In this document: positions 22,750 through 53,354 of the stretch, in pieces | Position numbering within the stretch: the first letter of the stretch is position 1 | Layout of the letters: every line of letters begins with the position of its first letter | Assembly: GCA_015233335.1 (NCBI GenBank) | Contig: JADFXX010000002.1 | Coordinates: 128,891 to 192,890, forward strand | DNA from: Candidatus Omnitrophota bacterium | Lineage (GTDB): Bacteria; Omnitrophota; Gorgyraeia; Zapsychrales; Fredricksoniimonadaceae | DNA: 64,000 bases | Direction: 5' to 3' | Notes under the pieces: model-generated | Databases searched by the model: none | Told to the model about the DNA's origin: nothing | Seen by the model: only the letters and a program-made list of their open reading frames with translations | Position numbers and translations under genes: made by a program

Positions 22750-22758
22750 ATCCCCTTA

Positions 22759-22891: not shown

Positions 22892-22932
22892 GATCCCTGC
22901 TGAGCCACCCGCCATCCAAGATCGATTCAAAC

Positions 22933-24595: not shown

Positions 24596-24599
24596 ATTC

Positions 24600-28122: not shown

Positions 28123-28165
28123 CCCTTGCCCTCCCACAATGGGGAAAGGAAAAAGAAGAGGAAAC

Positions 28166-28973: not shown

Positions 28974-29547
28974 GGTCAAACCCTCCCAAAGCTCCATCGA
29001 TCTCAACCGAGATTTCAGGATTATATTGATCGCGCAAAATACTCTCAATAGCTCCGAGCGTTCCCATGCTTGCAGAGGGACAGGAGCCACAAGCCCCTTG
29101 ATAGTTGATCGTCAATTTTTGTCCATCAAACCCTACGATCTGTATATCCCCTCCGTCCATTTGTAGGCCGAGACGAATGGTGTTATCTAATATCGCATTG
29201 ATCTTGACAATTTCAGGATCCTCAGACCCCATGACTGTCGACCTTCTATTTTCTTCAACCTTAAAATTAGGATCATGATCTTGGGCGTATTTTAAAATAA
29301 TATCCCTAATCTGCCCCTCGATCTTACCCCAATCCGCCTCGCCATCCTGTGTCACTGTGACATAATTGTCAAAAAAATAAACCTCCGAAATATGGTCGAC
29401 AGTAAAGATCGCAGCGGCCATGGGGTTAGTATCGCATTGCTCCAAATTTTTATACATCACCTTGCCATCGGTTTTTACAGGAATATTTAATATAAATTTG
29501 AGCGCATTTGGGTTAGGTGTGCTCTGGACCATGATCCTAATATCCAT
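28957..29547 (-). CDS. Nfu/NifU-type Fe-S cluster carrier (Nfu_N plus NifU C-terminal domain)
   Basis: Trimmed to MDIRIMVQSTPNPNALKF (Nfu N-domain signature). C-terminal domain has the GACGSCPS CxxC motif. Confidence 0.8.
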   Translation of the reverse strand: MDIRIMVQSTPNPNALKFILNIPVKTDGKVMYKNLEQCDTNPMAAAIFTVDHISEVYFFDNYVTVTQDGEADWGKIEGQIRDIILKYAQDHDPNFKVEENRRSTVMGSEDPEIVKINAILDNTIRLGLQMDGGDIQIVGFDGQKLTINYQGACGSCPSASMGTLGAIESILRDQYNPEISVEIDGALGGFDHGGLD

Positions 29548-29629
29548 ATTCTTCACTCCATATACTTCATATTTTGACGTATATAGATTAACATGAATGG
29601 CAGGGTTTGACAAGCAAGGAATCTGACTA

Positions 29630-34060: not shown

Positions 34061-34200
34061 CCTAACTCCTATTATTCCCACCAATTTAGTATAGTATATA
34101 ACATAAGCCAAAAAAATGCAAGAACTTATTTTCACTCGGATTGCAAAAGCGCACCTTTTATGTTATATTTTAATCTATGGCAAACGGGAGGAGAAAAAAT

Positions 34201-38401: not shown

Positions 38402-38914
38402 TTAACCAGATTTAAAATACCCCTTGTAAAAATTCGATCCTGCGGTTCTTGATTCTTTTAATAAAATTTGACTCTTTTCATAAAAACTCACAGCCACATT
38501 TTTCCATCCTTGAGCCTGTTGAATGACGCCAGGAGTAAATTTAAAATAATTTTCCAGATCACGCACAGAAACATCTCTGACATTTTTACGTCGATTTTTA
38601 TTTTTAAATTTCTTGGCGTTATAAAAATTCCATCCGCGGATGAACAAATACATAACAAATACAGTGCCAACATAAATAAAGCTAAATCCTGCCAGAGCCT
38701 TAATGCCCCCCAAACGGATCATGTGTTCATAAAAGATCTCAAAACCAAGAAACCATAATAATGCCAGCAATAAAGGCCGGCATAAAACAGCCCAGATAAA
38801 CCAGCCAATGGCTATCATGCCCCATTCCATACCCCGACGCAACGGATTTAACGCATGTGGATGATAAATGATCAAATCTTCATCATTACTCTTTGAATCC
38901 TGTGGGTTATGCAT
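38402..38914 (-). CDS. pgaD: PNAG biosynthesis protein PgaD
   Basis: 170 aa with two N-terminal TM helices. Position directly after pgaC. Confidence 0.65.
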   Translation of the reverse strand: MHNPQDSKSNDEDLIIYHPHALNPLRRGMEWGMIAIGWFIWAVLCRPLLLALLWFLGFEIFYEHMIRLGGIKALAGFSFIYVGTVFVMYLFIRGWNFYNAKKFKNKNRRKNVRDVSVRDLENYFKFTPGVIQQAQGWKNVAVSFYEKSQILLKESRTAGSNFYKGYFKSG

Positions 38915-38924
38915 ATCTTAAGTT

Positions 38925-40148
38925 TTAAAATCCCCGGTCTGGGCTATCCCATACAGCAGGAGTCCCCCGTTTTTTCATCATCGCCAAAGGAAATCCAAAA
39001 ATAGTGACCGCTGCATTCAATATCCAATAAATAAGCGGATACCATATCAGCCAAAAATACATTTTATAGATTTTAGGCTCAAAGCGGCTGTCAATAATAA
39101 GCCCGATCGCCATCTGGACCAAACACGCAATTGCCAAAATAATACCGGTCCATCCTGGGACGATGCTGCGAACCATCATCGATGTTGGCAATTTTATCAA
39201 TAGCCCGATTAAATAAATACCATAAGTCATAAAAAGCATATAGGCCCAATAAATACTCACGCCATATTCTATATACAACAGCCAGATACGTCGCTGCTGC
39301 CAACTGAACATAGAATGAAAATATTTACGCAACACCTCACTGCCTCCTTGAGCCCAACGCAGGCGCTGATTCCACAAGCCTTTCATCGTTTCCGGCATAA
39401 GGATCCAGCATAACGCCCTTGGCTCATAACGGATATCCCAAAATTTAAGCTGTAATTTCCAACTGATATCGATATCCTCGGTGACCATGTCGGTACTCCA
39501 AAACCCCACGGAAAAAAGAGCACGCTTACGGAATGCCGCAATGACCCCTGATACCGTATAAACCTTTCCCAAAATACGCTGTGCACGCTTAATCATACCG
39601 ACGATTGAGGAAAATTCACCAACCTGAATTTTTCCCACAATGCTGGTACGGTTACGCACACGCGGGTTTCCGGTCACGGCCCCCACCCTTGGAAAATTCA
39701 AGAAATGCCACATAAAATATTGAATCGCACAGGGGTCAAGAAGAGCGTCTGCATCTATACAAATAAGATACTCCCCACGGGCAACCAAGGCCCCCATGGT
39801 CAAAGCCATGCCTTTACCTTGATTGGTCGCAAGCTCAACAATACGTAAACGGGAGTCCTGTGTCGAAAGTTCTCTTAAAATATTTAAGGTTTCATCCCTG
39901 GAACCATCGTCAATGACAATAATTTCATAATTAGGATATTCCTGTTTTCTTAAATAACTGATCGTGTCACGAATACACCGGGCCTCATTATGGCAGGGGA
40001 CCAAAATGGAGGCAAAAGGAAATTCGGAAAGCCGCATGTCACGATTCTTAGGCTCCCTTAAAACATGATAAATGATCCCTCCTATCATAAAAACAAAAGC
40101 CATGAACAAGGGATAATAGAAAACAAAATTGTAAATTACCTGCATCAT
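38925..40148 (-). CDS. pgaC: Poly-beta-1,6-N-acetyl-D-glucosamine synthase (GT2)
   Basis: 407 aa. Motifs VPCHNE, IDDGS, IDAD, TEDID and Q(R)RLRWAQGG. Flanking TM helices. Confidence 0.88.
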   Translation of the reverse strand: MMQVIYNFVFYYPLFMAFVFMIGGIIYHVLREPKNRDMRLSEFPFASILVPCHNEARCIRDTISYLRKQEYPNYEIIVIDDGSRDETLNILRELSTQDSRLRIVELATNQGKGMALTMGALVARGEYLICIDADALLDPCAIQYFMWHFLNFPRVGAVTGNPRVRNRTSIVGKIQVGEFSSIVGMIKRAQRILGKVYTVSGVIAAFRKRALFSVGFWSTDMVTEDIDISWKLQLKFWDIRYEPRALCWILMPETMKGLWNQRLRWAQGGSEVLRKYFHSMFSWQQRRIWLLYIEYGVSIYWAYMLFMTYGIYLIGLLIKLPTSMMVRSIVPGWTGIILAIACLVQMAIGLIIDSRFEPKIYKMYFWLIWYPLIYWILNAAVTIFGFPLAMMKKRGTPAVWDSPDRGF

Positions 40149-40156
40149 ATACTCAA

Positions 40157-42097
40157 TTAATGTCTATAAGGATAATCTTCGCTCGACATCATCTCACGGA
40201 TAACACTAGCTCGGGGGTGATCTTGAACAAAATCATCCGGATAGTACCCCACATGATGGGCCCCAAGAGCCACCAGCGCTCTTAACCAACCATTTAACAT
40301 TTCAGGTTTCAACCAGACTTTTTTGTGCCAGTCAAATGCCTGAATTTTAAAAATAGTTTTTTCTATTCCATGAGGATGGGTTCGGGCGGCATCAACTAAA
40401 TGTTTAAACCAGACTTTAAAATCCCCATGGATTTCTTCCAGATAGGGATAGACCATCACCACCGCATAATCATAAGAATCGAGGGTCTTCTGATAATTTT
40501 GGGCAAACCATTCCTCACTGTCGGGATCTAACAAAACAGGAGAATATAAATTACGGCAAAACAAAGCTTCCGGACGATAGTAACGGACTGCTTTTTTCAA
40601 ATACTCGGTCAGGTCGATCAATTGATCAGTTTTCCTCTGCATCCATTGATGGGCTTGTTGTTGGGTTAACTGCTGTGGATCTTTTATCCCCCTGCCTGTT
40701 ATCTTAAAATATTCTTTTAAGGCGTCCGGATGAAAATCTTCGAAATCCGTTAAATAACCGTCATCTTGAAAAAGAACCCCGTCAATCGCAGCATTGGAAG
40801 CCAGATCAGCGTATAACTGATAAAGTTTATCCCAAGCTTCCTGACTAAAGGGGGAAAGACGCTGATAAGATTCATCACTATCAACTATTTTGCCATGATC
40901 ATATTTCTTAACCCTAAGTGCTTGAGTTTTAGCTAAATCAGGCAAAATAATACTGCTCACTGGCATCCAAGCATAAACTTCAACCTGACAACGGGCAAAC
41001 AATTGATGAGCCACCCGGCTAAACAAGTCCATACGCATGGGCAAGACCTGATTAGGGAAATAGACAGATTTAACATTACCGGTGCCTTCTGGATCAGCAA
41101 ATGCCTGCAAAAAAACGGTCGTGACCTTCATGTCCTTAACACGATCCAAAACAGCACTTAAATTTCTCTCTATTTGCTGTGGATCCTTATCGAAAATCAT
41201 GTCTAAATCCAACTGCATGATACGCAAGTGCTCCGGGCCACCAGGCTTAATCCCTAAAAAAATCAGTAAAGAGCCGATATCAGGATTCTTAAAAAGCATG
41301 AACCGCTCAATAATGCTATCATGAGACACATCCACACGCCGGTCGTTTAAGGCAAAGGTGAGCTTAATCCCCGCCTGCTTCGCTGCTTCCTGGGTCAAAG
41401 CATTATACTTGCCATAGGGCCACGCGATAGACCGCACCTTTATATTTAATTTCTCCTCGAGCTCATTTTTGGACCGCAGAATATCATCGAAAACCCTCTC
41501 CTGATAGATCTTATCCTCTTCATAGGCATGAGTTGTAATATCAAATGAATGGGCGGTCGCTGCAGCATCAGCATTACCCTGAGGATTATAAACGATCACT
41601 TGATGGAGACTATGCGTGTGCGAGGCTATCTCCACCAACCCACTGTGGGCCACCTCTTTAAGCTGATCCCATGTCATGAGCTTTTGTCTAACCACTAACG
41701 GTTTTTTATCAAGCCATCCGGAAACAACAGCCAGCAGACTTGGAATCTTGTATTCTTTCAGAAGAGGGAAAACAAAATCGTAAAATGTGGCATAACCGTC
41801 ATCAAAGGTTAAAAGAACAGGTTTTGAAGGAAGCGCTTTAATCCCGGTCTGAGCCTGAATAAGATCATCCAAGCTGACAAAATGAAAATTATGCATTCGG
41901 AAATATTCAATAGTTTGAATAAAAGTCCCTTCATCCACCGCATAATTATCCAAATTTACATCTTTCGGAATATCGTGATAACACAAAACGATCAGATCAT
42001 TCTTGGGCTTGTCCCCTGCAGTAGACACATCAGGCAGACACCACGTCAGGACCATGCCTAGAATTATCACAGGTAGAATTTTAAAATTATGCCCCAC
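40157..42097 (-). CDS. pgaB: PNAG N-deacetylase PgaB
   Basis: 646 aa. N-terminal polysaccharide-deacetylase domain (LTFDDGY...HTHSLH) plus a C-terminal GH-like domain. Signal/lipoprotein-like N-terminus. Confidence 0.85.
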   Translation of the reverse strand: MGHNFKILPVIILGMVLTWCLPDVSTAGDKPKNDLIVLCYHDIPKDVNLDNYAVDEGTFIQTIEYFRMHNFHFVSLDDLIQAQTGIKALPSKPVLLTFDDGYATFYDFVFPLLKEYKIPSLLAVVSGWLDKKPLVVRQKLMTWDQLKEVAHSGLVEIASHTHSLHQVIVYNPQGNADAAATAHSFDITTHAYEEDKIYQERVFDDILRSKNELEEKLNIKVRSIAWPYGKYNALTQEAAKQAGIKLTFALNDRRVDVSHDSIIERFMLFKNPDIGSLLIFLGIKPGGPEHLRIMQLDLDMIFDKDPQQIERNLSAVLDRVKDMKVTTVFLQAFADPEGTGNVKSVYFPNQVLPMRMDLFSRVAHQLFARCQVEVYAWMPVSSIILPDLAKTQALRVKKYDHGKIVDSDESYQRLSPFSQEAWDKLYQLYADLASNAAIDGVLFQDDGYLTDFEDFHPDALKEYFKITGRGIKDPQQLTQQQAHQWMQRKTDQLIDLTEYLKKAVRYYRPEALFCRNLYSPVLLDPDSEEWFAQNYQKTLDSYDYAVVMVYPYLEEIHGDFKVWFKHLVDAARTHPHGIEKTIFKIQAFDWHKKVWLKPEMLNGWLRALVALGAHHVGYYPDDFVQDHPRASVIREMMSSEDYPYRH

Positions 42098-42111
42098 CAG
42101 TCACTCCCTAA

Positions 42112-44145
42112 TTAAAATTTTTGCCGGACCGTCCAGTAGGTATCAAGCACATTCATATGCTGGCCGGTGTAATACTCAAGTGAATACGTCAACCCTACCA
42201 AGAAACTTAGTGTATCTGAAGCCTTATACTCTACTTCTTCACGCAAATACCCCACATTTTTATCACTGATACTATATTCCCATTGCTGACCTAATCCTAT
42301 ATAAAAACGATCAGAAAACTGCTTTTCATAAAGCTTGTACCAAATATGTTCCACATTAGGGATCAAATAAAAATCATAAACTTTCTTGGGGCTATAATAA
42401 TCCACCGCCTGCTTGGAAAAAGTTCTGGCATCAAACTCTGTTCCTAAACGCCATCTCCAGTACGCAAAAGTCCGAATGGCTGAATCTGTCGTCCACTGAT
42501 AATTCCAATTCGCGTTGCCATCTTGAAAATTCTTCAAATCTGCTGATAAACCGGTATCAAACGATTCGTTAAGACGCAATAAACTGGATAAAGAATAATC
42601 CTGAACATTTTCACCTGGCGCACGGCTGACTAAAGGAATATCGATTGTTCGTGAATCATAATGAAAGGTATGTGTCCAATGATCATCAGGGGTAAATGCA
42701 ACCTCAGAAATACCCCCTATTCTCTGCCCGGTGTTATAATCTCCGGTCAGCGCCTCTGTTAATTTCCAGGCATTATCAGGACGGTAAATATCCCCTAGAT
42801 AAAAACGTTGTGTCAGATAATGTCCTCCCCCAGTTGAGATAAATTCGGTGTTTCGACGAATAAGCTCGAAAAATAATTGGTTATGATCGTTGATGCGCTC
42901 ATCCAGACGATTAGATAAATAAAATTCGTCATCGCCGATAATTTCATGTGTATAATAGCCGCTCATGGTCCACATGGCCATATCATCCACATCCATTTGA
43001 CGTTTGGCTTCAAGCACTTGGGGATCCCTGGGGTATTGTCCGCTCAAAGATTTCAGCATCAAGCGCCCTTGGGCCTGGTGCATATTGTCATAAAGCGCGC
43101 GCGCAAACCCGAGTTCTGCCGGAAGCAAGGAAGGGTCCATCGTGTGGATGATACGAAATTCCTCCAAAGCCCGACGCGGCCATCCACGCCATAAATAAAG
43201 ATGGGCCATAGCGGAAAGAATCTGGGTATCCATCGGAGCTGCGTTAAAATACTGATCCCCGATTTTCTGGGCTTTTTTCAAACGATCCTGATACATCAGA
43301 AGCCAAATTTTATTATAGGAGATCTCTTCCTTGTGGGGATTATCCCTCATGATGCCCCGTTCTTTGATTTGAACAGGTTCCAGGCGGTCCATGGATTCCA
43401 AAAGCTCACCGGCCTGCTGGTAACGTCCTAAATCAATGAAGGTATAATAAATGGCTATTTTGACATTAAAAGAATCCGGTTCACTTTTCAAAACAGATTG
43501 ATACAAACTCAAGGCCTTTTTAGGTTGCCATTTTGCAAGATAGGCATCCCCCGCAGCCTCTTTAATCCAAGAGGGTATTTCGATCTTCTCCTGAAGCGCT
43601 TTTTGATAATCTGCAACAATTTCATCAAACCTGTTCTTTTCCTTTAAAATCAAAATGTTGTCCCAACGCGAACGATTCTCTTCAACTCCAGCCGCCTGTA
43701 AATTAATATTGATCTTGTTGTCCCGGGCCCGCGCGTAATCCTCTTGTTGCTTTTCTTTCTTTAACTGAATCGCAGCAATAGCCTCTTGCGGTTCATCCCA
43801 ACGAATATACATCGCAGCCAAATTCCCGCGAGCCCGTTGACATAAAACAGGATCAGAGTAAGGATTTTGAATGGACAGCTCAAGTGCCAAAGAATTAGCA
43901 CCCAATTCCATCAATGCACGCATTTTTAAATTGAAAGCAGCTTGATTATTTGGATACTGCTTCAAGATATAATTGTAGACTTTAACTGCTGAGAAATAAT
44001 CTCTGTGGAATTCTAACATTTCAGCTTTTGACATCAGACTTTGATAAGAATCCGAACCTTGCACAGAGGAAGCAATCTGGCCTAAGGCCAAAGAGCTATT
44101 CAATAAAACCAGAAATGATACAAACAGCTGTAAATAAATCATCAA
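42112..44145 (-). CDS. pgaA: PNAG export porin PgaA (TPR plus beta-barrel)
   Basis: 677 aa. Signal peptide, an N-terminal TPR-rich half, an aromatic-rich beta-barrel half ending ...YWTVRQKF. First gene of the pga order. Confidence 0.8.
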   Translation of the reverse strand: MMIYLQLFVSFLVLLNSSLALGQIASSVQGSDSYQSLMSKAEMLEFHRDYFSAVKVYNYILKQYPNNQAAFNLKMRALMELGANSLALELSIQNPYSDPVLCQRARGNLAAMYIRWDEPQEAIAAIQLKKEKQQEDYARARDNKININLQAAGVEENRSRWDNILILKEKNRFDEIVADYQKALQEKIEIPSWIKEAAGDAYLAKWQPKKALSLYQSVLKSEPDSFNVKIAIYYTFIDLGRYQQAGELLESMDRLEPVQIKERGIMRDNPHKEEISYNKIWLLMYQDRLKKAQKIGDQYFNAAPMDTQILSAMAHLYLWRGWPRRALEEFRIIHTMDPSLLPAELGFARALYDNMHQAQGRLMLKSLSGQYPRDPQVLEAKRQMDVDDMAMWTMSGYYTHEIIGDDEFYLSNRLDERINDHNQLFFELIRRNTEFISTGGGHYLTQRFYLGDIYRPDNAWKLTEALTGDYNTGQRIGGISEVAFTPDDHWTHTFHYDSRTIDIPLVSRAPGENVQDYSLSSLLRLNESFDTGLSADLKNFQDGNANWNYQWTTDSAIRTFAYWRWRLGTEFDARTFSKQAVDYYSPKKVYDFYLIPNVEHIWYKLYEKQFSDRFYIGLGQQWEYSISDKNVGYLREEVEYKASDTLSFLVGLTYSLEYYTGQHMNVLDTYWTVRQKF

Positions 44146-44161: not shown

Positions 44162-44833
44162 CTAGATTCTATCTAATAAACGCAATAAACCGTCAAGCGT
44201 TGTCAAAGGATGTGGCGGGCAGCCCGGTATAAAAAGATCAACAGGGAGGATAGTATCAAGTCCTAAAGAAACTTGCGGGCCATCCCTGAATATCCCACCT
44301 GAAATTGCACACCCTCCCAAAGCAATCACAATCTTAGGTGAGGGCAGGGCTTCATAGGTTTTAAGGAGCGCCTCGCGCATATTTTTTGTGATCGGGCCAG
44401 TCACTACAATGCCATCAGCATGCCGGGGAGAAGCCACAAACTGGATACCAAATCGTGAGAGATCAAAAACCGGAGTATTTAAAACATTTAAATCCAGCTC
44501 GCAGGCATTACAGCCTCCGGCTGAGACTTGTCTCAGCTTAAGCGAGCGGCCAAATATTTTAAGCATTTTATCCTCTAAAGCAGAGGCCAACACCTTTTCA
44601 CGGCCTGAAGACAAAATCAAGTCTTCTCGACCAGATGTGGACATTTGATAATCATTAGAAAAACTAAAACCGCTATCCGGATCAAAAGAAATTCTTCCCA
44701 TATCGACAATGTCATTTTGTCCTGCAATAATCGGGCGCCCGCGATAGCGCTCAGGCAACGCCGGCGCAGGAGCCTTAGGAAAAAATATGGTCTTGCAACC
44801 TTGTTTAAAACGTGCTTTAAGGATTTTTAACAT
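44162..44833 (-). CDS. NuoB/HycG-like small subunit with a NuoI-like cluster-less N-terminal extension (Ehr-type S subunit)
   Basis: 223 aa. [4Fe-4S] ligand pattern GGCNAC...GGCAISGG...IPGCPPHP. The N-terminal 90 aa carry LPERYRGRP and EDLILSSGREK segments but no CxxCxxCxxxCP motif. Confidence 0.8.
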   Translation of the reverse strand: MLKILKARFKQGCKTIFFPKAPAPALPERYRGRPIIAGQNDIVDMGRISFDPDSGFSFSNDYQMSTSGREDLILSSGREKVLASALEDKMLKIFGRSLKLRQVSAGGCNACELDLNVLNTPVFDLSRFGIQFVASPRHADGIVVTGPITKNMREALLKTYEALPSPKIVIALGGCAISGGIFRDGPQVSLGLDTILPVDLFIPGCPPHPLTTLDGLLRLLDRI

Positions 44834-44850: not shown

Positions 44851-46362
44851 CTATAAATCATGCCCACAATAGGACAAATTGAAACTTTTATTACACAAAG
44901 GAAAATCAGAAATTTCCTGACCTCGCATGGCATAGGCCAGCCCAAACCAGTTATGAAATGAGGGATCTTTGATCTTATAACGTCCAAAGCCGCCTTGGTT
45001 ATCGCTAATACCAACATGCATGATCTCTCCTCGCCAGCCTTCAACCATAGACACCGCCACCGTATCTGGTTTCATTGGCCCCGGAGCCACAAAAATATCT
45101 CCTGCTGGCAAAGAAGGTAAAACCCGTAGCAAAAATTCCAAGGACCTTAGGACCTCCTGACTTCGCACTAAAGCTCTAGCATAGACATCCCCGGTCGCCC
45201 CTAAAGAAATCGGCACATGTTGAAACTGCCACATCCCTGAAGCATAATTGATCCTGACATCACATTCCATCTGACTGGCACGTCCGGCAGGTCCTACCAG
45301 CCCAATCTCTTTAGCATCCTTAGGAGAAACGATCCCCACCCCTTCAAAGCGCGCTAATACTGACGGTCTGGTAAATAAAAGATCACTGACATCTTTAAAT
45401 TCATCCCTATATTTTTTTAACTTAAGACAAAAATCATTGGCCATTTTGTTATCAATATCGAATAAAACTCCCCCTGGCCGGCATAACCCCTTACCGAAAC
45501 GATTACCAGTTAAAATCAAAAGCAGATTTAAATAATCCCCCCGCATACGTCCAAAATAAGCACTCGTAGGTAAAAACCCAGCATCCATGCCAAGCGCGCC
45601 TAAATCTCCAACATGATTAGCTAATCTCTCCAGCTCTAAAGCAATGGCCCGGATCGCCTGGGCTCGAGGTGTAATACTACACCCTGTTAAGGATTCAACC
45701 ACTTCAGAAAAAGCCGTGGAATGTCCGATAGATGTGTCACCGACAATCGATTCGCTTAAAAGCATGCTTCGCCTTAAATCCTGCCCCTGCATCATCGGTT
45801 CAATACCCCGATGTTGATAGCCTAATTGGATTTCCAAATGCAGGATCTCCTCTCCGTGACATTGAAAACGGAAATGCCCGGGCTCGATGATCCCCGCATG
45901 AACCGGTCCTACCCCAATTTCATGGACCTCTTCCCCTTCCACAGCGTAAAATGGATATCCTCCCGGGATTATTTTGTCGTTAATACCCTGCCAAATATCC
46001 TCTGCCTGACGATAGTTGGAATGGTATCTTAATGGCTTAAGCCATGGGTGCCCCACGGGTTTGACGGCCCACTGTTCTGCAATCTCGCGCTCAAATAAAT
46101 GCGCTTGCGTAAGATCTTTTGTTAAAGATTCATATTGAGGGGATTCTAAACTAATAAAAGTCGATAAAATGTCAAGTCTGGCCTCTTCGTCTACCCCAAG
46201 AACAGCCAATAAACGCAGGTATCCGTTTGTCTCCAAAATCCCGAACAAATTCACCAGACGGGAAGACTCACCGCAAGATTCAATGATCTGCGCTCGGAAT
46301 TTTTCAACAACTAAGACCGGAATATTCGATAAAGATATTTTTCCACCATTAAAAAGTGCCAT
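44851..46362 (-). CDS. Fused NuoC + NuoD/HycE-like large subunit lacking NiFe-binding cysteines (Ehr-type L subunit)
   Basis: 503 aa. NuoC-like FEREIAEQWAVKPVGHP, then GPVHAGIIEPGHFRF. The L1 site reads ESIVGDTSIGHS instead of ERxCGICxxxHS. The C-terminus reads NLSYCGHDL instead of DPCxxCxxR. Confidence 0.8.
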   Translation of the reverse strand: MALFNGGKISLSNIPVLVVEKFRAQIIESCGESSRLVNLFGILETNGYLRLLAVLGVDEEARLDILSTFISLESPQYESLTKDLTQAHLFEREIAEQWAVKPVGHPWLKPLRYHSNYRQAEDIWQGINDKIIPGGYPFYAVEGEEVHEIGVGPVHAGIIEPGHFRFQCHGEEILHLEIQLGYQHRGIEPMMQGQDLRRSMLLSESIVGDTSIGHSTAFSEVVESLTGCSITPRAQAIRAIALELERLANHVGDLGALGMDAGFLPTSAYFGRMRGDYLNLLLILTGNRFGKGLCRPGGVLFDIDNKMANDFCLKLKKYRDEFKDVSDLLFTRPSVLARFEGVGIVSPKDAKEIGLVGPAGRASQMECDVRINYASGMWQFQHVPISLGATGDVYARALVRSQEVLRSLEFLLRVLPSLPAGDIFVAPGPMKPDTVAVSMVEGWRGEIMHVGISDNQGGFGRYKIKDPSFHNWFGLAYAMRGQEISDFPLCNKSFNLSYCGHDL

Positions 46363-46367: not shown

Positions 46368-47780
46368 TTAAACAGCTCCGATTAATTTGACTGCATTGTT
46401 GATCATTTTCTCAAGCCCGATCGGCATCCATAACCCGAGACCAACCAACAGCACGACAGCAAGTAGAATAGCCGCATTCATAGACGTGTTCTCTTTCTTT
46501 GCAAGAAGCGGTTCACGGGGCTTGCCATGAACAACCCCAAGAACAATTTTGGCGACTCCGATAAACATGACACCCAAACAAACAACACCCCCTGCGGCCA
46601 GACAATAATGCCTTGACGTGATCGCCGCATTAAGTATCAAAAGTTCACTATGAAATGTCGCAAAAGGAAACATGCCAGTTCCCGCCAAAAAGGCCGCGAC
46701 CAGTAAAATACCTGTCAACGGATAAATATGAATAATACCCTTAACTTCATCCGCTCTACTGGAACCATATTTCTGGGCAATAGAACCCGCCGTCAAGAAC
46801 ATGACGGACTTGGCCAAAGCATTATTGATCATATGAAACAACGCCCCAAATAAACCAACAGCACCCAGCCCAAGACCTAAAACCAAAAGACCCATATTTT
46901 CGATAGAAGAGTACGCAAATGCCCTTTTAATACTCTTTTCTCCTAAAATAAACAAGGCCGGGACTAGCAGTGATAACATCCCTGAAACAATCAGAATGGA
47001 AGAATAAAATTCTGTTAAACCTGCTTTGTTACAAACCTGAGCGATACGAAGCAAAGCCAAAAAAGAACATTGAGTCAATGCCCCAGCCATAATAACTCCA
47101 ACCATTCCTGTCGCCTGCCCATAAGCATCAGGTTTCCAACTATGGGTTGGAGCCAATCCCATTTTGCAACCATAACCAACGATAAAGAAAATGATGCTAA
47201 GCTTCATCCAATTCAAAGATAATGAAGATGATCCTTTTAAAATAGCCGGAAGCAAAAGAGTGTGCACATCGTGGGCCGCAATAGCAAGAAAAAATGTGCC
47301 CATCAATCCTAAAGCGATACCAACAGAACAAACCAGCAAATACCGCCATGTTGCCTGAAGACTTTGCTGATTGCGGTGATAACTGATCAAAGGCGCGCTA
47401 AACAAGGTCGTAGCTTCAATCGACACCCACAAAAGGCCAAAATGATAACTAACGGCAACCAGCGTCATCGTTGAAAGCAAACATAATAGACATACTGTTA
47501 AAAGACGATTGCTTCGAGGCTCATGCTTGAAATAACCAATCATAAAAACAGATACTGACAAAAAGAGGAAACTGACTATCGACAGCAGGATCAAACCCAA
47601 AGGATCAAGCACTAAAAAGCCGTTAAACTCAACCGGAGGCCTCTGCATCCAGAATAAAGCAACAATCAGTCCATGACAAAAAGAAACAGCTATGAACAGC
47701 TTAAGAATAAACTTCTTGCTCACTGGCAAAAAAATGCCCAGAGCGCTTATAAACGGCAATAAGATCAAAAGAGTCAACAT
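46368..47780 (-). CDS. NuoN/NuoM/Mrp-type antiporter-like membrane subunit
   Basis: 470 aa polytopic protein. GYGCKMGLAPTHSWKPDAYGQA matches the proton-pumping subunit signature. Confidence 0.8.
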   Translation of the reverse strand: MLTLLILLPFISALGIFLPVSKKFILKLFIAVSFCHGLIVALFWMQRPPVEFNGFLVLDPLGLILLSIVSFLFLSVSVFMIGYFKHEPRSNRLLTVCLLCLLSTMTLVAVSYHFGLLWVSIEATTLFSAPLISYHRNQQSLQATWRYLLVCSVGIALGLMGTFFLAIAAHDVHTLLLPAILKGSSSLSLNWMKLSIIFFIVGYGCKMGLAPTHSWKPDAYGQATGMVGVIMAGALTQCSFLALLRIAQVCNKAGLTEFYSSILIVSGMLSLLVPALFILGEKSIKRAFAYSSIENMGLLVLGLGLGAVGLFGALFHMINNALAKSVMFLTAGSIAQKYGSSRADEVKGIIHIYPLTGILLVAAFLAGTGMFPFATFHSELLILNAAITSRHYCLAAGGVVCLGVMFIGVAKIVLGVVHGKPREPLLAKKENTSMNAAILLAVVLLVGLGLWMPIGLEKMINNAVKLIGAV

Positions 47781-47793
47781 CCAACTTCCTTTT

Positions 47794-48447
47794 TTAAAAC
47801 GTTTCCCCCATCTTCGAGAACGTTACCGAAGCCGGGTTTTTCTCAAACTCTTCATTAATATGATTGACCACAATGGCCATGATAAATACAGCCACGAAAA
47901 TATCCAGAAGAATGCCCATTTCGATCAAGACCGGCATCACGTCAAATAATGACACCGCAAAAAGAAAAATTCCGTTTTCCATGATCAAATACCCCAGCAC
48001 TTGGGTGACCGCCCGGGTGCGGGTAACCATGATCATAAACCCTAAAAGCACCGTCGAAAGGGAGCATGGCAAGATAAGATCCGAAGCGGGCTTCCCCGGA
48101 AGCTTTAGGGATAACGAGACCCAAAAGGCCCCGGCAATGATCATCGCTCCTAAAATAATGGACGCTGATAATCCTATAATAGGCTTGACTTCCGAACGCA
48201 TGGACACATGCCGAATGGCCCAAAATAAAATAGAAGGTACCAGAACCGCCTTAAGGACCATTGTGACAACCCCTAAAATGACGTCACGGTTTGAAATACA
48301 GAAAGCATGCAAGAAAAACGGCAATAGCCCCAGGACAAAAGACTGAATGGCAAAAATCCGAATCATGGCAGCAACACGATAATTGGACAATATAATAAGA
48401 GATAAAAATACCACCGTAATACAGATGACATCAACCCAGCTTGTCAT
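47794..48447 (-). CDS. HyfE/NuoK-like small membrane subunit
   Basis: 217 aa, about 7 TM helices. Size and position match hydrogenase-4 component E-like subunits. Confidence 0.6.
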   Translation of the reverse strand: MTSWVDVICITVVFLSLIILSNYRVAAMIRIFAIQSFVLGLLPFFLHAFCISNRDVILGVVTMVLKAVLVPSILFWAIRHVSMRSEVKPIIGLSASIILGAMIIAGAFWVSLSLKLPGKPASDLILPCSLSTVLLGFMIMVTRTRAVTQVLGYLIMENGIFLFAVSLFDVMPVLIEMGILLDIFVAVFIMAIVVNHINEEFEKNPASVTFSKMGETF

Positions 48448-48454
48448 ATCTTTT

Positions 48455-49366
48455 TTATCCTTTCCACATTTTTACAACAAACCCAAAAAAACCTAAAGCA
48501 AAAGCAATCAAAAGCAAATGATTGACCCTGTTAAGCCGTAAACGTGCCGTGGTTGATTCTACTATGCCAACAGCTATAGATACAGCCAGCATCCCCCCTA
48601 AAAATATCAGCATATCCATAACCTTATTGACCGGCTCAATTGGTAGAATAATAGGGATCAGGATTCCGGCAAAAACAAATAACTTTATAGCTGAAGCATA
48701 AAGCAAGAATCCCAGATCGACCCCGCTATGGTCCAAAATTTTGACTTCATGGATCATGGTCAACTCCAAATGAGTATCAGGATCATCAATGGGAATACGC
48801 GCATTTTCGGCCAGAATTAAAATAAAAAAACTGCCTACCACTAAAATAAGCACTGTCCCCCAAAGCTTCCAAGACAGAGGAAGATTACCCCCGATCATGG
48901 AGGATAAAGAAATGCTGTGCTGGGCAAGAGAAAGCGTAATAAAATTCATGAACAAGATCATTTCACAAAGACACGAAAAGAAAGCCTCACGGCTGGCCCC
49001 CATACCTTCAAAACTATAGCCCGTATCCAGAGCCGCTATGATCATAAAAAACCTGGCTAGCCCTAAAATAGAAGCCGCCAAGAAAATGTCACCTGTAAAT
49101 TGAAGGGGCGCTTTAAATGGCCCTAGAGGAACAAGCAGAGCTAACAACAATACAGCGGCGAGGCAAATAATAGGTACGGCACGAAAAACCCATGTAGTCG
49201 TCCTGCTATAAACAGAATCCTTTTGAAAAAGCCTTTGCAGATCAAAAAAAGGTTGAAACAATGAGGGCCCTTTTTTACCTGCAAAAAACGCCTTAACCTT
49301 AGCGATAACACCCACAAACAAAGGTGCCAGTAAAAACACTATGATCCAGTGAGAAAAAATTAACAT
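48455..49366 (-). CDS. NuoH/HycD-like membrane subunit
   Basis: 303 aa. The AENARIPIDDPDTHLELTMIHE loop corresponds to the conserved E..R.PFD..E.E.EL loop of NuoH/HycD. Confidence 0.75.
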   Translation of the reverse strand: MLIFSHWIIVFLLAPLFVGVIAKVKAFFAGKKGPSLFQPFFDLQRLFQKDSVYSRTTTWVFRAVPIICLAAVLLLALLVPLGPFKAPLQFTGDIFLAASILGLARFFMIIAALDTGYSFEGMGASREAFFSCLCEMILFMNFITLSLAQHSISLSSMIGGNLPLSWKLWGTVLILVVGSFFILILAENARIPIDDPDTHLELTMIHEVKILDHSGVDLGFLLYASAIKLFVFAGILIPIILPIEPVNKVMDMLIFLGGMLAVSIAVGIVESTTARLRLNRVNHLLLIAFALGFFGFVVKMWKG

Positions 49367-49370
49367 ATTT

Positions 49371-51191
49371 TTATTTTAATTTCCAAACCAATAAGATTAT
49401 CAAATATAAGAAAATGTACATCAGATACATCTGTGTATACCGAATACGGCTGATATCCAATTTCCTTGATAAATTCGTCAATTTGCCGAATACTGGCTTA
49501 AACAAAAATTCTTCAAAGAAATCGCTGACCGATGAAGACATGGATGCCGATTGAGGGAAAAAGCCTTTAACCTGGGGAAATGTCCGTTTATAAAATAAAA
49601 TTCTCTTAAAAAAATCTAGAATAAGCCGTGCAAAAGAAGAAGAGGTGTATTGCATCCGAGGTGTCACATAAGAAAAACCACAACGCCAAGTTTCACTGAC
49701 AGATGCAGGCAAAGCCTTTAAAAATAATACGCGTAAATAAGTCAAAATTAGCACTAACGCAAGAAAAAGAACAACACCACCGATCATACAGGTTAGCGGT
49801 GAAAAAATATTATCCATGGGAAGCTCTAAAAGATCGGCATGGGACAAAAAAGCCCCCCCCAAAAAAGCTATGCCTGCCGCTGTTCTTGGGAAAAGACCGA
49901 TCCATAAACAAAATCCTGCCAAAACGATCATAGGGATACACATCCATAATGAAATTCTTTCCCCCAGCTGCGATCCTTTTGGCACGCGAGGTTCACCTAA
50001 GAATACTGTACCGTAAACCTTGGAAAAACAAGCTAGTGCAAGCGTTCCCATAAGGGCCAGTGCAATAATCCCCAAAGCACAGACAAATGTCCCCTGTAAA
50101 GGCAGATGAAAAATACCCTGAAAAAGGCCAAAATAAATAATAAACTCACTAATAAACCCGTTAAATAACGGTAATCCGCAGATGGCCAATGCCCCTATAA
50201 GAAATAAAATACTGACAAGCGGCATGACCTTGGCCATCCCTCCCATACGGTCCATCTCACCTGTGTGTGTTTTTTGAATAACAGCACCTGCAGCCAAAAA
50301 CAAAAGTCCTTTAAAAATGGCATGGTTAAAAACATGTAAGAGTGCACCACCAAACCCAAGCACAGCTAAAAAAGGCATACGATGACTCTCTCCCAGCAAC
50401 CCAACACCCAATCCAAGCGCAACAATCCCAATATTCTCGATACTATGATACGCTAAAAGTCTTTTAAGCTCATGCTGTCCTAAGGCATATAAAACCCCCA
50501 TCACTCCGCACAGAACGCCTATGATCAATAGCAAATATCCACACCAATCCGGAAGGACACCGATCATCCACAACACACGGCAGATACCGTAAATACCCAT
50601 TTTGATCATAACGCCGGATAAAACTGCCGATACGTGGCTCGGAGCTGCCGGATGCGCATGAGGCAGCCAAATATGGAGTGGAATAAAACCTGCCTTAACC
50701 CCAAAACCAAAAATAGCTAGAAGAAATATAACACCCGCAAGAACCGGCGGGAAAGGAGCATGACTGATGATGTCAAAATTCATGGACCCGCTGTTAGAGG
50801 CCATTAAAAAGAACATTATGATAAGAAGAAAAGTCCCACAGTGGGAAGCGATCAAATAAAGGAAACCGGCCCGGCGTACGTCAGACTCCTCATCCTTGAA
50901 AACAACCAAAAAAAATGCTGAAACCGACATTATTTCCCATGCGCCTAGAAAAAGAATCACATTATTAGCCAGAACAATCACTATAAGAGCCAGTGACAAA
51001 ACCAAATAAAAGAAGATATGAAGCCCCACAGGCCTCTTGGAGGCGTACGGACGCATATAACCGACAGCGTAAATGCCTGCACACAAGATTAAAATTATGA
51101 CCGCAACCAAAAAAATAAAACTCAACGGGTCAAATTTAAGCGAAAACTCCCCGAAGGGAACATGCCATGAGGATTGAAAATATTTTTCCAT
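49371..51191 (-). CDS. NuoL/HyfB-like antiporter-like membrane subunit
   Basis: 606 aa. IPLHIWLPHAHPAAPSHVSAVLSGVMIKMGIYG signature. Confidence 0.8.
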   Translation of the reverse strand: MEKYFQSSWHVPFGEFSLKFDPLSFIFLVAVIILILCAGIYAVGYMRPYASKRPVGLHIFFYLVLSLALIVIVLANNVILFLGAWEIMSVSAFFLVVFKDEESDVRRAGFLYLIASHCGTFLLIIMFFLMASNSGSMNFDIISHAPFPPVLAGVIFLLAIFGFGVKAGFIPLHIWLPHAHPAAPSHVSAVLSGVMIKMGIYGICRVLWMIGVLPDWCGYLLLIIGVLCGVMGVLYALGQHELKRLLAYHSIENIGIVALGLGVGLLGESHRMPFLAVLGFGGALLHVFNHAIFKGLLFLAAGAVIQKTHTGEMDRMGGMAKVMPLVSILFLIGALAICGLPLFNGFISEFIIYFGLFQGIFHLPLQGTFVCALGIIALALMGTLALACFSKVYGTVFLGEPRVPKGSQLGERISLWMCIPMIVLAGFCLWIGLFPRTAAGIAFLGGAFLSHADLLELPMDNIFSPLTCMIGGVVLFLALVLILTYLRVLFLKALPASVSETWRCGFSYVTPRMQYTSSSFARLILDFFKRILFYKRTFPQVKGFFPQSASMSSSVSDFFEEFLFKPVFGKLTNLSRKLDISRIRYTQMYLMYIFLYLIILLVWKLK

Positions 51192-51874
51192 TATGAAATT
51201 TTTGCGACCTTTGATTCCGCTACTTGAAATGCTGCCAGGATCTCCTCACTCTGGATCCGGCGCTGTAAAGCTGATTTAACTTCCTGATCCTGCAGACAAA
51301 ATGCGAGGCGTGACAGCAAAGATAAATGCCATTTGAATGATGAAGATAAAATAACAAATAACGTATGCACGCCTTCACCGTCTGGTGAAGAAAAATCAAC
51401 GGCCTTTTCTAGGAAAAAAAGCCCGACAATGGGTTCCATTCCCGCCAGTACCACCGGATGTTTAACATGCGGAATCGCAATCCCATTGCCAATGCCTGTC
51501 GTTCCCGCCTGCTCACGAGACAGCAACATCTCTTTTAAAGATGATTTCCGGATATGATCAGGCAGGACCAAAAGATCTAAAACTCTTCCTAAGATTTCTT
51601 CTCGATGATGACCAGTGAGGCCAAAATAGACTCCGCCACGCATGAGTGCCGGAGTAATAAGATCCTGCCCCTGACGGGCTTTTTCGCAAAGTTTCAATGC
51701 ACCGGCTGTAAGACATATTCGATTTTTTAAAGCCCATTCCAGGACTTCAACCGAATTAAAATAATACTGATCATTGGCCTTGATCGCAGGCATCCCCTGC
51801 TTATTAAGCCATTGATAAAGCTTCTCCTCAGGGATCCCAAACGCCTTTTCTATGTCACGGAAAGTCAGCTGCAT
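51191..51874 (-). CDS. HTH (excisionase/MerR-like) + PTS EIIA type-2 (EIIA-Ntr-like) domain protein
   Basis: 227 aa. N-terminal LTFRDIEKAFGIPEEKLYQWLNKQGMPA HTH. C-terminal GTTGIGNGIAIPHVKHP phosphorylatable-His motif. Its stop overlaps the next gene's ATG (TAATG). Confidence 0.75.
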   Translation of the reverse strand: MQLTFRDIEKAFGIPEEKLYQWLNKQGMPAIKANDQYYFNSVEVLEWALKNRICLTAGALKLCEKARQGQDLITPALMRGGVYFGLTGHHREEILGRVLDLLVLPDHIRKSSLKEMLLSREQAGTTGIGNGIAIPHVKHPVVLAGMEPIVGLFFLEKAVDFSSPDGEGVHTLFVILSSSFKWHLSLLSRLAFCLQDQEVKSALQRRIQSEEILAAFQVAESKVAKIS

Positions 51875-53289
51875 ACAATGCTTTGAGCAACCCCTGTTTG
51901 ATGCGCTGCCCCTTCAACGGCTTTGGTCACAGCTTCAACCACACGTTTATCAAAAATACTGGGAACAATGTATTCACTGCTCAGCTGGGTCGGCAAAATA
52001 AGATTGGCTATCGCGTCAGAAGCGGCAATTTTCATAGCCTCATTAATTTGTTTGGCACGTACATTCAAGGCCCCTCTGAATATACCGGGAAAAGCTAAAG
52101 CATTGTTAATTTGATTAGGAAAATCTGAACGGCCGGTCGCAAAAACCCGACAAACTTTGAAAGCCTGATGAGGATCAATCTCCGGATCAGGATTGGCCAT
52201 GGCAAATACAATACGATCTTTTTTCATCACCTTGAGATCTTCCTTGGATAAAATGTTCCCAGCTGAAACTCCGATGAAAACATCCGCTCCCCGCAAAGCT
52301 TCCCGTAAAGTTAAAACGGGATCATTGGGGGAAGCGCATGAAAACAAGTCCTGACGTGCACGGTCCAAATTAGCGCCATTGGCGATCAGAACAACTCCCT
52401 TGCGATTACAAGCCAGCAAATTCGAAACTCCTGCGGCCAATAGGATCCGGCAACAAGCCGCTCCCGCCGCCCCCAATCCATTCACGACAACGTGAACCCG
52501 TTTAATATCTTTTTTAACAACTTTCAATGCGTTTTTTAAGGCCGCCAATATAACGACCGCAGTCCCATGCTGGTCGTCATGCATCACCGGTATAGATAAA
52601 ATCTTTTTAAGCCTCTCTTCAATTTCAAAACAACGCGGAGCGCTGATATCTTCCAAATTAATACCGCCGAATGCCGGGGCGATATTCTGGACCGTCTTGA
52701 CAATTTCGTCAACATTCTGAGTGGCCAAACAAATAGGCCAGGCATCTATATTGGCAAACTCCTTAAAGATCATGGCCTTGCCTTCCATGACAGGCAAGGC
52801 AGCCTCAGGCCCCAAATTCCCTAATCCCAGAATAGCAGACCCGTCTGTCACGATAGCAACGCTATTGGCTTTGATAGTCAATTTATAAACCTCTTCTGGG
52901 TTTTTAGCAATCACTTGAGAAACTTTTGCAACTCCGGGGGTATACGCCATGGAAAGCTGATTACGTGTTTGCAGGGGGGTTTTATTATGAACCTGTATCT
53001 TCCCCCCTAAATGAAGCAGTAATACCCGATCAGATATCGCAATGATCCTGACATTTTTCAATTTTCCTAGACCTTTAAGGATCTTTTCGGCATCTTTTTC
53101 CCGGGCCACGTCAAAGGTTACATCACGAATGATTTTGGTGGCCGTAACATCGACGATGTCCACTGCTCCCAGTCCCGCTTTAGCAGAGGCGATCAATGCG
53201 GCGACAGACGCAAAAACACCCGGCCGATTTACAAGCTCCAGACGAATAGTCACTTTATTATTGGATGAAAAATTGCTTTCATTGTCCAT
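51865..53289 (-). CDS. NAD(P)-dependent malic enzyme with an N-terminal ACT domain
   Basis: Trimmed to the ATG preceded by GGGAGAG (MDNESNF...). ACT-like region, then AYTPGVA, GLGNLGP, MHDDQHGTA and GLGAAG motifs. Confidence 0.85.
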   Translation of the reverse strand: MDNESNFSSNNKVTIRLELVNRPGVFASVAALIASAKAGLGAVDIVDVTATKIIRDVTFDVAREKDAEKILKGLGKLKNVRIIAISDRVLLLHLGGKIQVHNKTPLQTRNQLSMAYTPGVAKVSQVIAKNPEEVYKLTIKANSVAIVTDGSAILGLGNLGPEAALPVMEGKAMIFKEFANIDAWPICLATQNVDEIVKTVQNIAPAFGGINLEDISAPRCFEIEERLKKILSIPVMHDDQHGTAVVILAALKNALKVVKKDIKRVHVVVNGLGAAGAACCRILLAAGVSNLLACNRKGVVLIANGANLDRARQDLFSCASPNDPVLTLREALRGADVFIGVSAGNILSKEDLKVMKKDRIVFAMANPDPEIDPHQAFKVCRVFATGRSDFPNQINNALAFPGIFRGALNVRAKQINEAMKIAASDAIANLILPTQLSSEYIVPSIFDKRVVEAVTKAVEGAAHQTGVAQSIVCS

Positions 53290-53354
53290 ATTTTTCGACT
53301 CTCCCTTCAGGGAAAATTTAACCCCCATCCGCTAATGTGTCCTTTAGCATGACA

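Follow-up and report, generated by a model that had tools for sequence, protein, structure and literature searches.

An Ehr-type gene cassette in a Candidatus Omnitrophota genome with a replaced NiFe site, a relay-less small subunit, and an EIIA-like partner

A stretch of 64,000 nucleotides from the genome of a Candidatus Omnitrophota bacterium (GCA_015233335.1, contig JADFXX010000002.1, positions 128,891 to 192,890), referred to here as the window, contains on its minus strand a cassette of genes related to those of group 4 [NiFe]-hydrogenases and complex I. The large-subunit gene of this cassette (44851-46362, minus strand) encodes a HycE-like protein of 503 amino acids in which NuoC- and NuoD-like parts are fused and in which the four cysteines that bind nickel and iron in hydrogenases have all been replaced. 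Homology and gene order identify the protein as EhrL, the large subunit of a putative Ehr (energy-converting or Ech hydrogenase-related) complex.

The large subunit and its former NiFe site

EhrL matches the Pfam family Complex1_49kDa (E value, 2.9e-35) and, weakly, Complex1_30kDa. A phmmer search of the PDB gave HycE of Escherichia coli (7z0s_E; 3.6e-46) as the best match, followed by MbhL (6cfw_L; 5.3e-42) and Nqo4 of Thermus thermophilus (3.5e-37). The AlphaFold2 (AF2) model of the protein (pTM, 0.80), in which pLDDT falls below 50 in the pocket segments of the monomer (residues 131 to 184 and 479 to 503), likewise had 7z0s_E as its top Foldseek match (TM score, 0.79). The HycE and MbhL matches and the Foldseek result place EhrL among the homologues of group 4 [NiFe]-hydrogenase large subunits.

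Ligand positions were mapped on a MAFFT alignment of EhrL with E. coli HycE, HyfG, and NuoCD and 150 family representatives. Group 4 [NiFe]-hydrogenases carry the ligand motifs RxCGxCxxxH and DPCxxCxxH/R, and EhrL has none of their four cysteines: V207 corresponds to HycE C241, T210 to C244, S497 to C531, and G500 to C534. The phmmer alignment agrees, setting 'lsesivgdtsighsta' of EhrL on 'lsdrvcgicgfahsta' of HycE and 'sfnlsy' on 'sldpcy'. The former L1 motif reads E-S-I-V-G-D-T-S-I-G-H-S (residues 204 to 215; 45718-45753, minus strand), and the former L2 motif reads C-N-K-S-F-N-L-S-Y-C-G-H-D-L (residues 490 to 503; 44854-44895, minus strand) and is followed directly by the stop codon. The initial annotation had reported the loss of all four cysteines, to Val and Thr at L1 and to Ser and Gly at L2; its residues and coordinates are exact, and no cysteine of EhrL falls on a ligand position when HycE, HyfG, and NuoCD are aligned with it. 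The displaced cysteine that it noted near the C terminus is present as Cys499. This position is C in 62, A in 38, and S in 14 of 114 orthologues, and such variability removes Cys499 as a conserved ligand candidate. The loss of the NiFe ligands is real and is due neither to chance nor to sequencing error.

Three further correspondences are D209 with HycE I243, G208 with NuoCD Y273, and L503 with HycE R537. During maturation, HycI cleaves HycE after R537. As L503 is the last residue of EhrL, the protein has no C-terminal maturation extension, and no homologues of the hyp or hycI maturation genes were found in the window.

The hydrogenase/NuoD scaffold around the former site is retained, as the initial annotation had also observed. 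The β1-β2 loop segment GPVHAGIIEPGHFRF lies at residues 152 to 166 (45865-45909, minus strand) and, in the alignment, contains Glu160 in the hydrogenase-type context EPGHF; Glu160 corresponds to HycE E193, and 93 of 94 aligned sequences have Glu there. Arg444 of EhrL corresponds to the HycE canopy residue R478, and the 'strictly conserved' canopy residue Asp529 of HycE has become Asn495. In formate hydrogenlyase (FHL), E193 of the HycE β1-β2 loop trades protons with C531, and R478 and D529 are canopy residues (PMC9474812).

The replacement residues are better conserved than the neighboring sequence. Among 114 full-length EhrL orthologues (58 to 100% identity), L1 reads E-S-I-A(112)/V(2)-G(114)-D(114)-T(112)/S(2), and the C terminus D-F-P-L-C-N-K-S-F-N-L-S-Y-x-G-H-D-L is nearly invariant, with NKSF.LSY.G.DL invariant throughout. 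Forty diverse representatives with 32 to 49% identity share E160, D209, N491, K492, S493, S497, Y498, G500, D502, and L503 without exception. The four ligand sites of 86 genomic homologues from many phyla read ATSG in 70 and ASSG in 8, the rest being other Cys-less forms; VTSG, the pattern in the window, is unique among them, so that Val207 is a rare local variant of the family Ala/Ser. Asp occupies position 209 in all 87 Cys-less homologues, and the 7 non-Asp rows among 94 are the hydrogenase and NuoCD references. The best 150 cluster representatives gave as family signatures E-x-[IVL]-[A/S/C]-G-D-[T/S]-x-x-[G/A]-H for L1 and D-F-P-[LIV]-x-N-K-S-F-[N/D]-L-S-Y-x-G-x-D-L(end) for L2. The core of this signature, [A/S]-G-D-[T/S] ... 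S-Y-x-G-x-D-L(end), is kept together with the gene cassette across more than 10 phyla.

EhrL is under strong purifying selection, and its gene is not decaying. Against the 83%-identical orthologue L003, the ratio of nonsynonymous to synonymous substitution rates (dN/dS) is 0.095 for EhrL, 0.11 for the small-subunit gene ehrS, and 0.07 for the EIIA gene described below; these ratios are given against L003 only, because dS is saturated for orthologue pairs below approximately 80% identity. The loss of four cysteines is itself the sole argument for regarding the gene as a group 4 [NiFe]-hydrogenase pseudogene in decay. Such a pseudogene would not be expected to keep an intact open reading frame, dN/dS values as low as these, replacement residues invariant over 32 to 100% identity, and the synteny of seven genes across phyla, and we reject this explanation, whose probability we consider negligible. 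No frameshifts, and no random residues at 207 to 210 or 497 to 500, were seen in close relatives. The view of the initial annotation that the active site is repurposed rather than decayed is therefore borne out as far as decay is concerned; repurposing as such is what we infer from it. Lost NiFe ligands, a conserved signature, and purifying selection together indicate a functional protein that is not a hydrogenase.

A hydrogenase or other metalloenzyme could in principle use ligands other than cysteine at the site, such as D209, H214, C490, C499, and H501. Asp209 and His214 are conserved, as are C490 and H501 within the close Omnitrophota clade. Over the whole family, however, position 490 may be I, V, or N, position 499 A or S, and position 501 N, F, V, or Y. 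The equivalent of His214 is conserved in true hydrogenases as well, where it is not a metal ligand. With this variation, no hyp genes in the window, and no C-terminal extension for endopeptidase-dependent NiFe insertion, alternative ligation is very improbable, and we regard it as effectively excluded.

Ehr complexes have been described as group 4 [NiFe]-hydrogenase relatives without the Ni/Fe-coordinating cysteines, whose genes are accompanied by those for antiporter-like subunits; GSU0739-45 of Geobacter sulfurreducens encode EhrA-1, B, C, D, L, and S, and the function of the complex has been called 'unknown' or 'never investigated' (PMC6349859, PMC7894505, PMC10284858, PMC10432482, PMC7304191). 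The ligand loss noticed by the initial annotation is thus the defining trait of a known class, and the comparison with Ehr L subunits that it proposed was apt. In agreement with the published description, EhrL lacks both Ni/Fe-coordinating CxxC motifs, and Pfam and NCBIfam matches identify the gene order EhrA, B, C, D, L, S with NuoB-like, NuoH-like, and NuoL-like subunits.

A HMMER scan of 1.84 billion cluster representatives returned 865 with an E value of <1e-30, and all but four of the best 150 are Cys-less. The four (P0215, P0232, P0256, and P0267) are true hydrogenase sequences (ERxCGxC...H; NKSF[E/N]LCYSCxDR) on the same scaffold, with the motifs GPxHAGIIEPGHFRF and DFPLxNKSF, and are the nearest Cys-containing representatives for judging a possible position of Ehr beside the group 4f hydrogenases. 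In a rough neighbor-joining tree, built without labelled HydDB references and too crude to choose between single and multiple ligand loss, they form one clade inside the Cys-less radiation, near a subfamily with S-S-S-G at the four sites. Scanning one genome per GTDB species gave at least 600 matches, of which we examined the best 80 loci. These come from Omnitrophota, Planctomycetota, Verrucomicrobiota, Gemmatimonadota, Spirochaetota, Riflebacteria, Acidobacteriota, Myxococcota, Fibrobacterota, Lentisphaerae, and Desulfobacterota, the last taking in an uncultured Geobacter sp., Geomonas limicola, Geobacteraceae, and Pelobacter. The Geobacteraceae members (uncultured Geobacter sp., L039; G. 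limicola, L054; L053; and Citrifermentans bremense, P0437) have the cassette and the ATSG pattern at 46 to 49% EhrL identity. The exact EhrL protein of the window is public as a protein of a Candidatus Omnitrophota metagenome-assembled genome (P0001), where it is annotated 'hydrogenase.'

Some genomes contain a second, divergent Ehr-like cluster in tandem (L053, 13248-20566; L071, 221-9977). The large subunit of this second cluster is 34 to 35% identical to EhrL of the window, with the four sites reading S-[ST]-S-G. Ehr thus has at least two paralogous subfamilies that are able to coexist.

The small subunit and its iron-sulfur clusters

The small subunit, EhrS, follows EhrL and has 223 amino acids (44162-44833, minus strand). 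It consists of a degenerate HycF/NuoI-like domain without iron-sulfur cysteines (residues ~1 to 100; 44534-44833, minus strand) and a NuoB/HycG-like domain (residues ~101 to 223), in which Oxidored_q6, at residues 108 to 218, is the sole Pfam match. Alignment with MbhJ and HycG shows that EhrS has the complete set of four cysteine ligands for the proximal [4Fe-4S] cluster, C108-x2-C111, C175, and C205 (codons 44510-44512, 44501-44503, 44309-44311, and 44219-44221, minus strand). Depending on the position, these sites are Cys in 72 to 75 of 76 genomic homologues, and they are Cys in each of 118 close orthologues.

Across phyla, EhrS usually combines a HycF/NuoI-like domain for two [4Fe-4S] clusters with the NuoB-like domain in one fused protein. 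This usual form begins, like HycF, HyfH, and NuoI, with M-x3-L-x2-R-x2-Q-G-x-R-T-x2-[FY]-P...R-F-R-G-x-P and contains the cluster motifs C-x3-C-x2-C-x3-C-P (motif 1) and D-L-G-R-C-L-F-C-x2-C-x3-C-P (motif 2). Loci L010, L012, and L054, among others, served as comparisons for the fused domain, and Pfam recognizes an Fer4 dicluster together with Oxidored_q6 in EhrS of Sedimentisphaerales, Limisphaerales, and Geomonas. In the Omnitrophota clade, motif 1 is missing through a deletion, and D-M-G-R-I-S-F-D-P stands in place of motif 2. None of the eight relay cysteines is left in 118 of 118 orthologues, whose N-terminal ~105 residues contain 0 to 3 Cys, and the remnant domain is still conserved. Aligned with hhalign, EhrS residues 1 to 75 matched HycF residues 1 to 109 (E = 1e-3; probability, 22%) with a gap of 28 residues over motif 1. 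The AF2 model of EhrS has a mean pLDDT of 38.5 (37-sequence alignment), and the N-terminal NuoI-like fold is not readable from it.

Part of the relay has been lost in other lineages as well. EhrS of Gemmatimonadota (L017, L019, L026, L032, L034, and L036) has lost Cys-Pro from motif 1 together with the greater part of motif 2. Desulfobacterales and relatives (L045, L047, L052, L055, L059, L066, L073, L084, and L085) have kept C-x2-C-x2-C of motif 2 and C-P of motif 1; by analogy to NuoI, their EhrS would retain one relay cluster, the one adjoining the proximal cluster. Judged from these sequences, the partial losses in Gemmatimonadota and Desulfobacterales are independent of the loss in Omnitrophota. 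The complex encoded in the window is thus predicted to have lost two of three iron-sulfur clusters and to lack both a catalytic metal site and an electron relay. The loss of the relay cysteines in Omnitrophota EhrS is not mentioned in the literature that we searched, and an earlier description is possible.

The operon, its membrane arm, and the EIIA partner

The genes of the cassette all lie on the minus strand, with intergenic gaps of at most 17 nucleotides or overlaps. The order EIIA-EhrA(-EhrA2)-B-C-D-L-S is found again among the 80 loci and on other contigs of Omnitrophota. EhrA (49371-51191, minus strand) is a HyfB/NuoL-like antiporter-like subunit of 606 amino acids that matches NCBIfam hydrogenase 4 subunit B (1.1e-163) at model positions 67 to 665 of 669. 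Approximately 60 residues at the start of HyfB-type subunits, corresponding to about two helices, are missing from it, some relatives having 658 to 679 amino acids; an in-frame stop codon directly upstream rules out a longer form. EhrB (48455-49366, minus strand; 303 amino acids) is a NuoH/HycD-like membrane anchor (Pfam NADHdh, 7.1e-30). EhrC (47794-48447, minus strand; 217 amino acids) is a HyfE-like membrane subunit that matches the NCBIfam hydrogenase 4 membrane subunit below its cutoff (4.8e-27) and Pfam Oxidored_q2 weakly. EhrD (46368-47780, minus strand; 470 amino acids) is a second antiporter-like subunit, of the HyfF/NuoM/N type (Pfam Proton_antipo_M, 7e-36), whose best NCBIfam match is hydrogenase 4 subunit F, under the cutoff of that model.

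By alignment, the membrane arm retains the charged residues responsible for ion passage in complex I, Mrp, and membrane-bound hydrogenase (MBH). Compared with E. coli NuoL/M/N and HyfB/D/F, EhrA and EhrD both have the antiporter pattern of Glu in transmembrane helix 5 (TM5), Lys in TM7, Lys or Gln in TM8, and Glu in TM12, the residues typical of Mrp-type antiporters. E86, K166, K197, and E349 of EhrA align with E144, K234, K265, and E407 of NuoM; E122, K206, and E379 of EhrD align with NuoM E144, K234, and E407, and the TM8 position of EhrD is Q237. In EhrB, the family-invariant residues E135, D194, E201, and D212 align with E157, D213, E220, and E228 of E. coli NuoH.

Directly upstream of EhrA lies a gene (51191-51874, minus strand) for a protein of 227 amino acids with an HTH_17 domain (5.6e-06) and a PtsN-like EIIA-2 domain of the phosphotransferase system (PTS; Pfam PTS_EIIA_2, 1.3e-20). 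One nucleotide of its stop codon is shared with the EhrA start. EIIA-like proteins of this kind are a frequent and conserved companion of EhrA: among 54 loci with enough upstream sequence, drawn from many phyla, at least 31 have the EIIA gene directly upstream of an EhrA gene, which it often overlaps, and where EhrA is duplicated the EIIA gene is often found with one of the copies. The His of the motif G-I-A-I-P-H, which is the site phosphorylated in PtsN-type proteins and a putative phospho-histidine here, is invariant in 32 of 32 EIIA proteins. We found no mention of an association between EIIA and Ehr in the literature searched; an earlier description is possible. In two Geobacteraceae loci (L039 and L053), the EIIA-EhrA pair is divergently oriented.

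The membrane genes of the window have a history of their own, as a comparison with loci L003, L089, L090, and L091 indicates. EhrA to EhrD (46368-51191) are only 46 to 52% identical to their counterparts in L003 and L090, whereas EIIA, EhrL, and EhrS of these two loci, and likewise the malic enzyme of L090, are 82 to 85% identical to those of the window. L089 is 74 to 84% identical to the window throughout. The dN is four-fold higher in the EhrA-D block. This divergence amid conserved flanks suggests an exchange of the four membrane genes as a unit between related operons, and recombination seems to have substituted EhrA-D in a single step. The literature searched does not mention such a swap of membrane genes in Ehr, and an earlier description is possible.

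Upstream of the EIIA gene, and as context rather than a core part of the cassette, is a gene for an ACT-domain malic enzyme of 487 amino acids (51865-53328, minus strand; Pfam malic, Malic_M, and ACT_4), which overlaps the EIIA gene start by 10 nucleotides. A sigma-70-like site at 53427-53400, the best one on the minus strand (consensus evidence only), lies just upstream of the malic enzyme gene, with which the transcription unit probably begins. The same neighbor is present at L001, L090 (85% identity), and L033. Among the loci compared for these neighbors (L001, L020, L033, L090, and L091), an ACT-domain malic enzyme gene is again found upstream of Ehr at one locus of Planctomycetaceae and two further loci of Omnitrophota. 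Other genes that recur near Ehr encode a CitMHS transporter and SulP-family transporters, the latter with STAS or P-II domains. These recurrent neighbors hint at a link to C4-dicarboxylate or anion metabolism.

In a neighbor census of the 80 loci, in which most of the recurrent 'clusters' were artifacts of antisense open reading frames in GC-rich genomes, no formate dehydrogenase, NuoE/F, hyp, or ferredoxin genes were recurrent. The idea of a formate dehydrogenase linked to Ehr (PMC6349859) accordingly received no support at the loci examined. The 64-kb window itself contains no hyp, other PTS, formate dehydrogenase, or NuoEF genes.

Downstream of the EhrS stop codon, a complete pgaABCD-like operon for poly-N-acetylglucosamine synthesis and export (38402-44145, minus strand) begins after 16 nucleotides, with no terminator-like site in between, and may be cotranscribed with the Ehr genes. 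It encodes PgaA (barrel and TPR), PgaB (deacetylase and GHL13), PgaC (GT2), and PgaD and was not seen in related loci. Farther away, the region 21733-29613 (minus strand) encodes MoaA for molybdenum cofactor synthesis and a SUF/NifU iron-sulfur assembly set (SufS-like, SufB, SufD, SufC-like, and Nfu). Three sizeable open reading frames have no Pfam match: 18539-21664 (minus strand; 1,041 amino acids), 36132-37649 (minus strand; 505 amino acids), and 34177-35226 (plus strand; 349 amino acids). The 505- and 349-amino-acid proteins have signal-peptide-like N termini.

Proposed function and comparison with known systems

Our overall reading, to which we assign a probability of about 0.7, is that EhrL belongs to an Ehr complex that is not a hydrogenase, that translocates H+ or Na+, and whose former active-site pocket serves as a coupling trigger. 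Ion translocation is the most likely function suggested by these sequences, and redox chemistry is possibly absent. The old NiFe/quinone pocket, now formed by D209, T210, and S497 beside Glu160 and Arg444, would be a protonatable trigger linking the peripheral arm to the membrane arm, a role that the equivalent site has in both complex I and MBH. A chain of three clusters could, in most phyla, deliver electrons to an acceptor in the pocket. Electron throughput by this relay route is impossible in the window variant. Either a soluble donor might reduce the single remaining cluster directly, or the complex might transport ions, in a secondary or regulated manner, without any net transfer of electrons; we weight these two options about equally and hold each of them only tentatively. 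The phosphorylatable EIIA-like partner would be a likely regulator.

Several points weigh against this reading. The literature that we searched contained no biochemical or genetic data on any Ehr complex, structures included, and its function is consequently deduced from homology. The tie to the type example runs via other Geobacteraceae and not through EhrL of G. sulfurreducens itself; in a search seeded with Geomonas EhrL, the matches listed all had at least 64% identity, and the G. sulfurreducens protein was not among them. AF2 confidence is low in the pocket, and the proposed clustering of D209, T210, S497, and E160 comes from the alignment with HycE. The proximal cysteines of EhrS, invariant in 118 orthologues, argue for a persisting iron-sulfur role and sit poorly with a purely non-redox transporter, unless the cluster is structural.

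One alternative is a redox-driven ion pump, in which a substrate (a quinone, as in complex I, or a sulfane or another small molecule, as in the membrane-bound sulfane reductase [MBS]) would be reduced at or next to the proximal cluster; in the clade of the window, the former place of the relay clusters would serve as the docking site of a soluble low-potential donor. The proximal cluster is kept everywhere, and most Ehr lineages have a complete three-cluster chain. A precedent is MBS, in which the NiFe site has been lost and catalysis takes place at the proximal cluster (PMC8165549), and Ehr subunits were more abundant in formate-grown G. sulfurreducens (PMC7894505). Against this, the quinone ligands of complex I are missing, with the invariant Gly208 at the position of NuoCD Y273 and a Glu, not a His, in the loop, and Ehr is present in lineages reported to lack quinone biosynthesis (PMC6349859). 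EhrS has four Cys with the hydrogenase-type C-x2-C, which is neither the open iron of MBS with its three Cys nor the tandem Cys-Cys of complex I, and no donor or acceptor is identifiable in the 64-kb window. We regard such a pump as possible, though doubtful.

Another alternative is an Omnitrophota variant that, with no NiFe site and no relay clusters, would be redox dead and would act as a secondary cation/proton antiporter or gated ion path of the Mrp-like kind. The peripheral arm would then be a structural cap, the remaining cluster a folding element or redox sensor, and phosphorylation of EIIA the switch of activity. This is consistent with the disappearance of all eight relay cysteines from 118 of 118 orthologues while the remnant domain stayed conserved, the independent partial losses in Gemmatimonadota and Desulfobacterales, the intact antiporter and E-channel residues, the tight pairing of the EIIA gene, with its invariant His, to the EhrA gene, and the lack of an electron-donor module encoded nearby. 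Mrp, in contrast, needs no NuoB/NuoD-like arm. The four proximal-cluster cysteines are invariant, and the pocket signature is conserved as it is in the relay-containing lineages, which suggests that pocket and cluster still do their ancestral job. We consider a redox-dead transporter rather unlikely.

A broader proposal, which we put forward as speculative, is that the peripheral NuoB/NuoD/NuoH-type module can work independently of electron throughput, for example as a protonation-driven gate for the antiporter arm, under the control of a PTS-Ntr-type EIIA protein that would bind the HyfB-like subunit. If this were true, Ehr would not be a respiratory enzyme, and the repeated loss of the relay (in Omnitrophota, Gemmatimonadota, and partly Desulfobacterales) and the block exchange would mark it as a modular, regulated ion-transport system.

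Ehr complexes occur in very many bacteria and archaea and stand evolutionarily between hydrogenases and complex I. The window adds no new class, and it provides a precise, family-wide signature of the replacement of the NiFe site, in which the invariant Asp209 and Ser497 are obvious targets for mutagenesis. The variant indicates that the two relay clusters are dispensable and the proximal cluster is not, and a conserved, phosphorylatable EIIA-type partner offers a handle on the regulation of Ehr. These points narrow the range of hypotheses for experiments in a tractable organism, for example Geobacter, and are also a warning that annotating Ehr genes as 'hydrogenase' misleads the prediction of H2 metabolism from metagenomes. 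The relay-less EhrS, the partnership with EIIA, and the module swap make the Ehr of the window a variant worth recording.

Among known systems, the closest are Ehr complexes such as that of G. sulfurreducens (GSU0739-45), which agree with the window in subunit set and order: HyfB-like, NuoH-like, HyfE-like, HyfF-like, L, and S. EhrL of Geobacteraceae is 46 to 49% identical over its full length and has the A-G-D-T / S-Y-x-G signature. The window differs in its single EhrA copy, which is N-terminally shorter (606 amino acids), in the Val at the first ligand position where the family has Ala or Ser, and in EhrS, since the Geobacteraceae protein has a fused ferredoxin domain with its cysteines and the clade of the window has lost all eight.

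Of solved structures, HycE is the best match for EhrL, and the E. coli hydrogenases 3 and 4 (FHL-1 and FHL-2; HycE and HyfG, group 4a) share with the window the NuoC-NuoD fusion, Hyf-like membrane subunits, the C-x2-C of the proximal cluster, the β1-β2 Glu (E193), and the canopy Arg (R478). The identity to EhrL is nevertheless 26 to 27%, and EhrL has neither the NiFe ligands nor the cleavage extension. HycF is a separate protein in E. coli, whereas the HycF-like domain of the window is fused to EhrS and degenerate, and no HycB, FdhF, hyp, or hycI genes are near the Ehr genes of the window.

Like NuoD and NuoB of complex I, the Ehr subunits have lost the four NiFe cysteines and kept the proximal [4Fe-4S] cluster and an antiporter-like arm. 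Unlike complex I, EhrL has Gly208 in place of the quinone Tyr (Nqo4 Y87 / NuoCD Y273) and no β1-β2 His, EhrS lacks the tandem Cys-Cys, and there is no NuoE/F/G module; EhrL scores 177.7 on the NCBIfam NuoD model against a cutoff of 360.

The MBS/Mbx of Pyrococcus is likewise a relative of group 4 hydrogenases that does without NiFe chemistry and has kept an ion-translocating arm, and some authors treat MBS as an Ehr-type complex (PMC6349859). MbsL keeps two of the four NiFe-site cysteines, and MbsJ binds the proximal cluster with three Cys (PMC8165549). The window does not share these MBS traits: EhrL has none of the four NiFe-site cysteines, and EhrS has all four proximal ones. The similarity of EhrL to MbsL is far weaker (E = 2.4e-20), and the membrane module of the window is Hyf-like and not Mrp-like.

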